From: an uncultured Solirubrobacteraceae bacterium
GTDB lineage: Bacteria; Actinomycetota; Thermoleophilia; Solirubrobacterales; Solirubrobacteraceae
Direction of reading: 5' to 3'
DNA length: 64,000 nucleotides
Assembly (NCBI GenBank): GCA_963740765.1
Contig: CAVUFN010000008.1
Location: forward strand, 392,092 to 456,091
The translations under genes and the position numbers were made by a program. Positions 49,467 through 52,400 of this stretch are shown here, in pieces. Within the stretch, counting starts at the first letter, position 1; every line of letters starts with the position of its first letter. The notes under the pieces were generated by a model. That model saw nothing but the letters and a program-made list of their open reading frames with translations. It was not told the DNA's origin and made no database searches.

Positions 49467-52400
49467 CAGAACGAGAAGCTCCTGCAGGACTTGACTCCGG
49501 CCTTCGCGCCGACCTCGAGGCCGGCGCCCACTTTGACCTGCCCCTGGAGGCCGGCGCTGCCGTAGCTGCCGCCGGCGGACACTGGCCCGGCGGCGACGGA
49601 CACGCCGGCCTTCCAGTTGCCGCAGTCGTCCCACTCGCCGCCGACGGTGACGCCCGCGGGGCCGACCTTGAGGTTGGCCTCCGCGAAGCCGACGTCGGAG
49701 TTCTCCGGTGAGCCGGTCAGGTCTGCCTCGACGCCACCGCTGAGGCCGACGCCCAGCTCCGCGCAGGCACCGACGCCGTTGCCGTCGGCGCACAGGGAGA
49801 AGCCGCCGCCGATGCCGAGGTAGCCGCTCATGCCGATGCAGATGAGCCCGCTCGGGTCGCGCAGGGACGCGGGGTCATTGCCGACGTAGGCGTAGAGGTT
49901 GATCGGGCTGCCCTCGAAGAAGGCGGGGTCACGAGCGGTCCAGCGGCCGGCCGCGGGGTCGTAGTCGCGCATGCCGAAGCGCACGAGGCCGGTGACCGGG
50001 TCGGCGATGCCGCCCGCGTAGCCGACCGGCAGACCGAAGCCTCCCGCGGAGTCCGACACGACGCGGCCCCAGGTGTCGCGCTCGACGCGCTTGACGATCG
50101 TCCCTGCGTCGTCGACGACGACGACTGGCGAGTTGACCTGGTCGGCGCCGACGGCGTAGCGCTTCCCGCCGCGCTCGAAGCCGTGCAACGCGCCCTCGTC
50201 GTCGTAGAAGTAGGTCGTCAGCGCGCCGCTTGGGGCGACGGAGCCCGTGAGCTGGAACGGGTCGTCGGGATTGCCGTAGAGGTACTTCTCGGTGTCGCCG
50301 CCCTGGGACCGGGCGGTCCGCCGGCCGAAGGCGTCGTAGGCGTAGCCGACGGTGGTCCCGCCGACGGTTGCCGACAGCAACTCGCCGCGGACGCCGTAGT
50401 CGAACGAATCCGAGCCGCGACCCGCCAGGAACCCGTTTGCATCCCATGCGTACGTGGTCGCGCCGAGCTTGGTGAGGCGGTCCTGGGCGTCGTACTGCGC
50501 GCCGCCGCTCGTGCGGTTGCCGCCGTCGTCGTAGGTGTAGCTCTCGACGCTCCCGCCGTCCTTGGTGACCTCCTTGAGGCGGTTGTCGGAGTCGTAGGCG
50601 TAGGTGTAGACGTGCTCCGTACCGCCGACGGTCTCCGTGCGCTGGGAGACCTGACCCGAGTCGTCGCGCTCGACCTTCAGCGTGTAGTGCTCCGTGCCGC
50701 CCGTCGCCAGCTGCCGCTCGCTGAGGCCGCCGTAGCCGTCATGGTCCTCCGAGAGCGTGGTGGTCCCGTCGGCGATCGAGCGCGGCTCGCCCGTGTCGCT
50801 GTCGCGGGTGATCGTGTAGGGCCCGTGCTTGACGACGCGGCGGTCGGCGTCGCGGTCGATGTCGTAGGTGCGCTGGTCGCCGCCCGCCGAGACCGTGTAC
50901 TCCGTCAGCTGGTGGTCGTTGTCGGGCGTGTAGGCGTAGGAGCCCGCGTCCGTCGTCATGCTCTTGGGCAGGCGGCCCTGGAAGGTCATCGCCAGCGTGT
51001 GCTCGGGGGCGCCGCCGCCGGTGTTCCAGGTCGCCTCCTTGAGCAGCTCCGTGCCGTCCTGGTAGGTGAAGCCGGCGGTGCTGTCGGGCGAGGAGATGCC
51101 CGCCAGGCGCGCGCCGGCGTCGTAGGACCACGTCTGGGTCGCGCCACCCGGCTCGGTGCGGGAGGACAGCTGCCGGTCGGCGGAGTAAGCACGGTCGTAG
51201 CCGGTGGCGGGGCCGGGCAGGGACATCGTGTCCACGCGGTCGTCGGGGGTGAAGGTGAAGCCGTAGGTCCGGCCGAGCGGCGTGGTGATCGACGTGCGAT
51301 TGCCGTCGTCGTCGTAGGTGTAGCTCCAGGCCCGGTCGCCGTCCGTCGTCATCGTCGTCATCCGGTCGGCGTCGTCGTAGGCGAACTGGACCACTTGCCC
51401 GAGCGCGTTCGTGCGCGTGATCGCGCGGTCCTTGGCGTCGAAGCCGTAAGTCCAGGAGCGGTCGCCCTGCTCGACCCGAAACACGCGCCCGCGGGCGTCG
51501 TAGCTCGTCTCGAGCGGCAGCGTGCCGGCCGCCTTGCTGGCCTCGACGATCCGGCCCTGCTCGTCCAGCCGCGCGACCGTCTGGCGCCCCGCCGGGGTGG
51601 TGGAGGTGAGCGTGCCGCCGGAGTCCCCGTCGTCGGTGTAGACGCGCTGGGAGGTGCGGCTGTTGACGCTGATGGACTCGGTGCGCGACTGGAGCTCCGT
51701 GCCGTCGACGGTGCTGGACACCGACCGGGTGGTGGTCCGGGTGCGCGGGGACGGGCCGGGCGTGGTCTCGATCTCGCTGGCGGCGACGGGGGCCTGCATG
51801 CCGAACCGCGGGTCGGGCTCCATCGTCAGGTCGACGGTGGTGCCGTCGGCCTGCTCGAGGTGCACGGTGCCGTCCGTGCGCCGTACGGAGGTGGTGACGC
51901 CGCCTGCCGGGTCGGTGACCGTGCGGCGGATGTCGCCCGTGGCGAGCTCCTCGTAGCGGTAGGTCGTCTTCCGGTTCTGGCTGGTGACGTGCTCGACGAC
52001 CTGGCCGTTGGCGGTCTTGGTCCGCGTCAGCGTCTGCGTGTAGCCCGTCGGGCCGACGTCGGAGGTCAGGCGCCCTTCGCCGTCGTAGCTGAATGTGTGG
52101 TCGTCGCCGCCGGGCTCCTCGAGGCCGGTCAGCAGACCGCCGGCGCCGTAGGCCAGGGTCACGGCCTCCCCGGCGGGGTTGGTGACCTTGGTGAGGTTGC
52201 CGGCTGCGCTGATGGCCAGCTCCGTGCGCTGGCCGCCGCGGGCGACGAGCGCCACGCTCCCGTCGCTGCGGTCGATCGTCAGCAGGACGCCGTCGCCGTC
52301 GGAGACGGAGGCCAGGCGACCCTGGGCGTCGTAGCCGAACTGGTGGATGATGCCGCCCGTCAGCGCGTCCCGGGTGCGCAGGTGGCGCCCGTTCTCGTTG

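Follow-up and report, generated by a model that had tools for sequence, protein, structure and literature searches.

A conserved, predicted all-beta cargo domain at the C-terminus of a teneurin-like RHS protein from an uncultured Solirubrobacteraceae bacterium

The shells of RHS proteins and of bacterial teneurin-like proteins (TLPs) are generic delivery cages in which the cargo defines the function. The C-terminal domains (CTDs) of TLPs are polymorphic in general, and several of them are toxic and have downstream immunity genes (Raoelijaona et al., Nat Commun 2026, PMC13018210). In this study, we analyzed the 125-aa CTD of a TLP encoded at positions 49469..49843 on the minus strand of a 64,000-nucleotide stretch of DNA from an uncultured Solirubrobacteraceae bacterium (assembly GCA_963740765.1, contig CAVUFN010000008.1, positions 392,092 to 456,091 of the forward strand). 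This whole stretch is called the window below. An earlier note on the window, made from its letters alone, had described the CTD as an unrecognised tail behind the DPSGL motif of an RHS protein.

In cryo-electron microscopy of the Bacillus inaquosorum TLP (BiTLP), the shell enclosed the cleaved cargo completely, and a disulfide joined the cargo to residue C719 of the FN-plug (C719-C2216). The catalytic residues of BiTLP are R2103, D2116, and D2140, and its cleavage site reads PxxxxDPxG. The cargo was toxic and permeabilizing solely with a signal peptide, i.e. when targeted to the periplasm (PMC13018210 for all three statements). The window protein resembles BiTLP in its Rhs-core cleavage site and in a predicted Arg/Asp/Asp center with identical spacing; caging and Cys tethering, which were shown for BiTLP, would apply here by analogy. 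However, the two CTDs differ. That of BiTLP is a hydrophobic domain of 92 aa with a predicted transmembrane helix and an unrelated sequence, whereas the window CTD is predicted to be all-beta and has five Cys.

The CTD of the Paenibacillus oryzisoli TLP was labelled as 'OMP' (outer membrane protein) type in the same paper. On the OMP-type CTD, that paper offers a fold label and a single toxicity test (cytoplasmic, negative) and gives no family definition, conserved residues, distribution, or mechanism (PMC13018210). The P. oryzisoli and window CTDs are alike in sequence family, in their Cys and Gly motifs, in their position behind the cleavage motif of a TTR/FN-plug/NHL/YD-shell protein, and in belonging to a class of ~15 kDa. 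In contrast to the Paenibacillus CTDs, that of the window comes from an actinobacterial-type genome with 73% GC and from a carrier without SLH anchors, and CTD identity is ~30-35%. The CTD carriers of P. elgii and P. andongensis, which were among our matches, are also listed in the genome table of the paper. According to the paper, the adhesive eukaryotic teneurins have their closest relatives in the Paenibacillaceae TLPs; in these teneurins, the C-terminus was retained and the cleavage motif lost (PMC13018210).

In concept, the window CTD can also be compared with Tse5-CT of Pseudomonas aeruginosa, in which an Rhs cocoon holds a membrane-inserting, non-enzymatic cargo that is freed by DPxGL autoproteolysis. 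However, the two show no similarity in sequence or in predicted fold. Tse5 is reportedly a helical, hydrophobic toxin that has a cognate immunity protein and is delivered through PAAR and the type VI secretion system.

The cargo domain and its family

The CTD forms the last 125 residues of the open reading frame (ORF) 49466..53116(-) and is immediately preceded by NDPASLRDPSGL, ending LRDPSGL. The minus-strand translation of 49469-49843 was identical to the peptide quoted in the earlier note, while the plus-strand reading of the same positions gave an unrelated sequence. The assignment of the tail as the cargo of an RHS-type protein behind a DPxGL motif was also confirmed, with YD/RHS repeats followed by an Rhs core that ends at DPSGL. 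The match to this core (Rhs_assc_core, TIGR03696, 1.6e-18) covered aa 1014-1091 of the ORF and ended exactly on the L of DPSGL, the RHS-core autoproteolysis site at 49844..49858 (-), so that cleavage is expected after L1091. The predicted aspartyl-protease residues R1050 (49967-49969), D1063 (49928-49930), and D1087 (49856-49858) lie within 49856..49969 on the minus strand. Their spacing of 13 + 24 residues is the same as that of R2103/D2116/D2140 in BiTLP. At the sequence level, the cleavage chemistry of the carrier looks intact.

The tail contains five Cys (tail positions 2, 18, 27, 74, and 120), ends in Phe, and shows an alternation of small and hydrophobic residues, all as described before. 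The Gly content had been given as about 35% and was counted here as 24.8% (31/125), with 58% for G+A+S+V together and 13.6% Gly in the YD shell. No Pfam or NCBIfam family was matched by the tail over threshold, and, as stated earlier, no catalytic motif could be recognized. Readings of the tail as a catalytic-Cys or thioester domain were dropped, as there was no conserved His or Gln partner and the predicted fold was all-beta.

When 1.84 billion cluster representatives were searched exhaustively with HMMER at a cut-off of E<=1e-3, 52 of them matched the tail (E 1e-68 to 1e-3), and every match was located at the extreme C-terminus of its protein. In the representatives with upstream sequence, the CTD directly followed a DPxGL-type motif of an Rhs core. 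A word-indexed protein search returned one match with the single tail and eight with the profile, because the tail is a low-complexity query. In the alignment of 47 tails (A1), C27, G31, G33, and C120 were invariant, and Y8, G12, G14, E29, G35, C74, and G86 were conserved in at least 90% of members. The window tail has all invariant residues and, from the second set, Y8, G12, G14, E29, G35, and C74. The terminal residue was F or W in about two thirds of members. When all 47 members were compared with Pfam and NCBIfam, no family exceeded its threshold, and Porin_4 was weakly matched by 2 of them. The A1 profile found no match among PDB sequences (best E=0.2).

The tail ORF is not due to chance, because RHS domains lie upstream of it, 52 homologous C-terminal representatives exist, and pN/pS was low. 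The last value was obtained by comparing the tail with that of a 96%-identical relative (L001), with 14 synonymous and 5 non-synonymous differences and a crude pN/pS of ~0.13.

The distribution of the family was examined in 185,579 genomes, one per GTDB species, with a core-plus-tail alignment as the query. The scan yielded 191 relatives, and 80 loci were kept. The CTD stood right after DPxGL in 79 of these 80 loci, the exception being L084, and most ended 0-7 residues from the end of the profile. The hosts of the kept genome loci belonged mostly to monoderm lineages. They included Solirubrobacteraceae and other Thermoleophilia, Acidimicrobiales, Paenibacillus, Cohnella, Syntrophomonas, Pelotomaculum, Symbiobacteriaceae, and, with Chloroflexota included, Anaerolineae and Dehalococcoidia. 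Further carriers were found in some Myxococcales, Nitrospirota, and proteobacterial metagenome-assembled genomes (MAGs). The nearest relatives of the window were Solirubrobacteraceae MAGs, with at most 55% identity and several paralogous loci per MAG. One of the Solirubrobacteraceae MAGs, MFD04212.bin.1.67, contained at least three separate TLP loci (L009, L020, and L024). Each of these carried the same CTD family, and the three loci therefore represent a paralogous expansion and not alternative tails of one gene.

The P. oryzisoli 'OMP' CTD (PMC13018210) scored 109.6 bits against the A1 profile over its full length. The window tail, carried by a Sec-exported TLP, and the OMP-type CTD of Paenibacillaceae TLPs are very probably members of one conserved all-beta CTD family, which is still without a name. 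The earlier view that the tail could not be assigned was thus half upheld: it matches no curated family, but it is not an orphan, and its family had already been noted (PMC13018210). The sensitive profile and structure searches proposed at that time gave a similar result, with no known toxin family matched and a homologous CTD family found. The 'OMP' CTD of Desulfosudis oleivorans (TLP 1, PMC13018210) was rejected as a family member, since it scored 5.2 bits and represents a different, Cys-poor and Tyr/Gly-rich sequence family. The next gene after D. oleivorans TLP 1 encodes a 105-aa hydrophobic protein, apparently a multi-pass membrane protein by eye, that looks like a plausible immunity protein, unlike the neighbors of the window family.

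Predicted fold and possible activity

The AlphaFold2 (AF2) model of the window CTD built with A1 had a pLDDT of 87.4 and a pTM of 0.70. It contains eight strands, at residues 2-20, 23-41, 49-60, 63-72, 77-85, 88-95, 98-108, and 111-124. A second AF2 model, built for the P. andongensis CTD (pLDDT 80), reproduced strands 1-6 and the last strand and had similar long amphipathic strands; the strand-7 region was a variable, low-confidence insert in that model. Among 120 non-identical members, the strands followed a strict two-residue periodicity. The hydrophobic face (I/V/L/F/A) of the clearly alternating strands had a charged fraction of mostly 0.00-0.05 in these members. All conserved residues were located on the opposite face, namely C2, G4, S6, Y8, G10, G12, G14, Q/K16, and C18, followed by S25, C27, E29, G31, G33, G35, E55, K114, K118, and C120.

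The high Gly content and the precedent of Tse5 as an Rhs-caged pore former could speak for a helical glycine-zipper protein like Tse5-CT, EsxX, or CdzC that forms pores. This reading is essentially refuted by these data. Both AF2 models were all-beta, and the conserved core had no helix. The Gly spacing was GxGxG (i, i+2) instead of GxxxG, no hydrophobic stretch of ~20 residues was present, and the Pfam families for Gly-zipper proteins and bacteriocins matched 0 of the 47 members. The earlier description 'glycine-zipper or beta-hairpin-like' is thus retained for its beta, amphipathic part and given up for the zipper.

Of the 47 members, 45 had an odd number of Cys (3, 5, 7, 9, or 11). The optional Cys occurred as pairs, at positions 2+18 (35/35), 19+24, 84+89, and 60+109. 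The pairs 19+24 and 84+89 are cross-strand neighbors in predicted hairpins, and these parts of the model are therefore supported. Covariation was analyzed by mutual information with average product correction (MI-APC) on the 120-sequence alignment (Neff ~101), against a column-shuffle null that ignores phylogeny. Anti-diagonal signals above this null were found between 50-55 and 114-119, between 1-6 and 14-19, in the beta5-beta6 hairpin, and between 25-30 and 117-122. The last signal sets the invariant C27 opposite the invariant C120, and E29 opposite K118. These patterns suggest a disulfide between C27 and C120 and an optional pairing of C2 with C18, which would leave C74 unpaired. A conserved C-x8-C motif (PGDCGHPGSIILCDSQVLGE) is present in the TIP/FN-plug region of the CTD carriers, at aa 572-581 of the syntenic orthologue P0002 and at ~54030-54080 (-) in the window. 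C74 might form a disulfide with this motif, as the cargo Cys does with the FN-plug in BiTLP.

The reading that we put forward, tentatively, is a disulfide-stabilized beta cargo, released by autoproteolysis, that would be active on membranes from outside the cytoplasm. The carrier would be exported, and its Rhs-core aspartyl protease (R1050, D1063, D1087) would then cut after L1091. The 12-kDa CTD would stay enclosed in the YD shell, possibly tethered via C74 in a manner similar to the FN-plug disulfide of the BiTLP cargo. After release at the target, it would form a small beta barrel or sheet that is stapled by C27-C120 and, optionally, by C2/C18. The uncharged hydrophobic face would lie on lipid, and the conserved Gly/Ser/Tyr/Glu/Lys face would line the interior or an oligomer interface, so that the membrane would be perturbed or permeabilized from outside the cytoplasm. 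The producer would not need a dedicated immunity protein, because the cargo would never be folded in its cytoplasm and would be caged outside it. Action outside the cytoplasm would account for both the negative cytoplasmic test and the missing immunity gene. The earlier note had offered a membrane-inserting or pore-forming cargo or a non-toxic plug. Of these, the membrane-active option appears most plausible for a beta, amphipathic domain, and the structural role is kept as a rival.

The predicted domain shares several features with OmpA-TM, OmpX, Ail, OmpW, and the porins, which are alternating strands, interior-type Gly/Ser/Tyr/Glu/Lys residues, a frequent terminal Phe or Trp, and weak Porin_4 and 3Di matches. 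However, it differs from eight-stranded OMP barrels in the lack of any significant match (Ail TMq 0.17), in its conserved, putative disulfides, and in its non-meander covariation. The family is also encoded mostly by monoderm bacteria, which have no outer membrane and no BAM.

Several results weigh against a membrane-active cargo. Porin_4 was matched by the tail below its threshold (E=0.029, 14.6 bits against a cut-off of 27). Foldseek searches with two AF2 models against PDB, and with one against BFVD, gave no match at E<=1e-3; the overall best E was 7e-3 and the TM at most 0.47. The OMP assignment was thus not reproduced at significance by Pfam or Foldseek. The highest-probability match was a soluble barrel, VapG of Rhodococcus equi (E=0.14), and the other matches were weak ones to porin, Ail, PapC, and GFP-type barrels, with TMq of 0.17-0.34 for the porins and Ail. 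The strand alternation would be equally expected in a soluble barrel or sandwich whose core is hydrophobic. In a canonical meander OMP barrel, one would not expect the last strand to covary with strands 2 and 3, or residues 1-6 with 14-19. Either the model or its reading is incomplete, or the signals reflect intermolecular or oligomeric contacts, or the topology is non-meander. Disulfides are unusual in membrane barrels. Both the absence of an immunity gene and the co-divergence of CTD and shell, which are described below, also fit a non-toxic role, and the carrier gene of the window may be a pseudogene. Finally, E. coli that expressed the P. oryzisoli CTD from pBAD, N-terminally tagged and lacking a signal peptide, grew uninhibited and reached an OD at 6 h of 1.33-1.36 compared to 1.32-1.37 for the empty vector (PMC13018210).

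Some of these results would also suit a soluble, secreted beta-barrel effector or binding module of the Vap, lipocalin, or lectin kind, which would bind a ligand, a lipid head-group, or a host or prey surface without forming a pore. VapG had the best Foldseek probability (prob 0.90, TMq 0.42) and is a small eight-strand barrel, and a weak profile match to a fatty-acid-binding protein was found (E=0.46). Two of the optional Cys pairs, 60-109 and 58-111, are located on the hydrophobic face. The beta3-beta8 pairing points to a compact non-meander barrel, and disulfides are also typical of extracellular soluble proteins. On the other side, all structural matches were non-significant, and a fold of this kind would expose to solvent the Gly-rich polar face, where the most conserved residues lie. 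We consider this module unlikely. R. equi VapG (PDB 5aeo), the match with the top Foldseek probability, is a small (~110 aa) all-beta barrel that is secreted by an actinobacterium, and in these points it resembles the predicted window CTD. However, the Vap match was not significant (TM 0.42-0.47), there was no sequence similarity, and Vap proteins are free-standing and not RHS cargos. VapA has been described as membrane- and pH-active.

A more specific form of the membrane-active cargo would be a caged, minimal, disulfide-stapled beta barrel from mostly monoderm bacteria (Solirubrobacterales, Paenibacillaceae, Syntrophomonadaceae, and Chloroflexota), OMP-like in its amphipathic pattern and with an aromatic last residue, that inserts into the outer membrane of diderm neighbors or hijacks its assembly pathway, or an oligomeric beta pore. 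The odd Cys count and the odd covariation (1-6 with 14-19; the last strand with strands 2 and 3) would then be intermolecular contacts. This form is quite unlikely. If it were true, the family would be an immunity-free class of RHS-delivered beta-barrel toxins, unlike the helical and enzymatic RHS cargos known so far.

Tail and shell identity were compared across related loci. The intact syntenic orthologue P0002 (metagenome, 2121 aa) was 55% identical to the window protein overall and 52% identical in the tail, without a break at DPSGL. Across 1653 locus pairs, CTD identity followed shell identity (Pearson r=0.76), and a shell identity of 0.6-0.7 corresponded to a CTD identity of 0.73. The earlier expectation of a polymorphic toxin therefore does not hold between orthologues. 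In the wider TLP family, the result was different. The Rhs core closest to that of the window, 74% identical over 66 aa, was found in a TLP of an Actinomycetota MAG (L084), where DPTGL is followed by an unrelated Lys/Asp/Glu-rich CTD of ~130 aa (L084:5001-5600). The Euzebya rosea TLP also has a different CTD. Since close TLP cores carry unrelated CTDs, the CTD position behaves as a cargo slot, which, as judged from these sequences, is exchangeable in the wider TLP family. The survey of tail variability that had been suggested thus found no abrupt divergence within the family and a variable slot beyond it.

A CTD that co-diverges with its shell and is conserved as much or more could instead be a non-toxic, integral filler or plug of the YD-shell lumen, or a folding or tethering element, in a TLP that acts as a teneurin-like surface adhesin or contact sensor. 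This role is also supported by the absence of a recurrent downstream or immunity gene in ~84 loci and by the non-toxic P. oryzisoli homologue in E. coli (PMC13018210). In addition, the odd Cys count would fit a BiTLP-type disulfide to the FN-plug, and the Paenibacillaceae TLPs are those closest to adhesive eukaryotic teneurins. However, the autoproteolytic motif and the catalytic residues are kept in most of the family, whereas teneurins lost the motif. A filler also has no need of an uncharged face or a frequent terminal aromatic residue, and the entirely different CTDs behind close cores in L084 and E. rosea indicate a cargo slot. Taken together, a lumenal role is judged rather unlikely, and a membrane-active cargo is tentatively preferred.

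Carrier protein and neighboring genes

As read from its sequence, the carrier is a bacterial TLP with a Sec signal, encoded at 55757-49466 (-), that comprises a TTR domain, an FN-plug region, NHL repeats, a YD shell, and the Rhs core. The 1216-aa ORF 49466..53116(-) represents only the C-terminal 55% of this gene. The YD/RHS-repeat shell is located at 49844..52399 (-), including the Rhs-associated core at 49844-50077 (PF25023, PF05593, TIGR01643, TIGR03696). In the ORF, PF25023 (TEN_YD-shell) was matched at 6e-49, PF05593 (RHS_repeat) at 2e-38 in 13 stretches, and TIGR01643 at 1.4e-31. The NHL beta-propeller repeats span 52454..53475 (-), with PF25021 and PF01436 in the ORF (TEN_NHL 5e-18) and upstream repeats in other frames; further NHL matches were found in the frame fragments 53016-53234 and 53239-53730.

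The N-terminal ~45% of the carrier (53016..55757, minus strand) was reconstructed by tblastn and six-frame reading. It contains the signal peptide, a CARDB-like region, the TTR domain, and the FN-plug region with conserved Cys. The six-frame reading placed the start at 55757, followed by a Sec-type signal peptide at 55677-55757 (-), MSRVRILSIAVAACLLLVSVALGAAAA. PF25020 (TTR_TEN1-4) was matched in an upstream frame at 8e-15. The FN-plug region had no Pfam match and is backed by 52% identity to aa 599-688 of P0002. In P0002 and other carriers, the full TLP architecture of TTR, FN-plug, NHL, and YD shell is present, with SLH anchors in some.

By tblastn, P0002 was colinear with 55757..49469 of the window in the frames -3, -2, -1, -2, -3, and -1. 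The N-terminal part of the window gene thus has at least five frame changes within 53016-54573, near 54500, 54000, 53731, 53237, and 53020. The flanking genes, which are the aldehyde dehydrogenase of PutA, the downstream gene for a 1449-aa protein, and PdxT, each align in one frame, and the frame changes are therefore local to the carrier. They reflect either an assembly error or pseudogenization. The 96%-identical relative L001 is itself full of indels.

The downstream gene (45117..49466, minus strand) encodes a 1449-aa protein with a Sec signal, and its ATG overlaps the stop codon of the TLP gene (TGATG). The protein has 18% Gly and six tandem modules of ~200 aa, with the motif W-x-GG-x-M ... 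DPGNY-x-Y at aa 132, 331, 531, 734, 936, and 1126, and it matched nothing in Pfam or PDB. The gene is kept downstream of the orthologue in L002 (36% identity) and is absent from the other loci of the CTD family, so a link to the CTD would be hypothetical.

The search for immunity genes was performed with the downstream ORFs of ~84 loci by all-against-all BLAST. No recurrent family was detected among these ORFs, which formed small synteny clusters only. The downstream genes varied by locus and included those for a TetR regulator, CO-dehydrogenase, a GH43 giant, aldehyde dehydrogenase, and small ORFs, often with a convergent gene within 2-150 nt. The published 'immunity example' of P. oryzisoli had no tblastn homologue in any of the loci. 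The published 'immunity example' of Ca. Solirubrobacter pratensis looks aldehyde dehydrogenase-like by eye.

These neighbors bear on the possibility of a classical polymorphic interbacterial toxin with an adjacent immunity gene, a function that the overlapping 1449-aa gene would serve here. Polymorphic TLP CTDs, several of them toxic and paired with downstream immunity genes, provide the precedent (PMC13018210). The overlap with the TLP stop, which comes with conservation of the gene in the orthologous locus, and two small unannotated ORFs downstream in L006 could be taken in the same direction. However, a 1449-aa secreted repeat protein is unlike any known immunity protein, the downstream genes are wholly different in each locus with no family beyond close synteny, and the P. 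oryzisoli 'immunity example' has no counterpart in these loci. A toxin-immunity pair is thus very improbable, and the polymorphic-toxin frame of the earlier note is not supported by the ~84 loci, in which no conserved immunity partner was found.

The gene order at P0002, consisting of PutA, the TLP, a ~1446-aa protein, and PdxT/PdxS, is the same as in the window. Positions 42774-45136 of the window encode an RpiR-family regulator (HTH_6 + SIS), PdxS (SOR_SNZ, 3e-105), and PdxT, with the same synteny in L001 and L002. In L002, PutA lies directly upstream of the TLP. Compared to L002, the window has ~5.9 kb of extra sequence (55795-61630) between the aldehyde dehydrogenase gene (61633-63147) and the TLP start, and this insert codes for a Macro-domain protein, a TetR regulator, an arylsulfotransferase, and a sulfatase.

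Meaning for teneurin-like proteins

The OMP-type CTD appears to be among the commonest cargo types of TLPs. The new results here are the sequence definition of its family, with the conserved face, the Cys rules, and a likely C27-C120 disulfide, together with its distribution and its co-evolution with the cage. The family occurs in the Paenibacillaceae clade that was placed closest to animal teneurins (PMC13018210), yet it has no database family, assigned fold, or immunity partner, and its single toxicity test was negative. Should the cargo act on membranes, bacteria that lack an outer membrane would be producing an RHS cargo of the beta type. Should it not, some bacterial TLPs would not be toxins, which would bear on the path by which teneurins became adhesion receptors.

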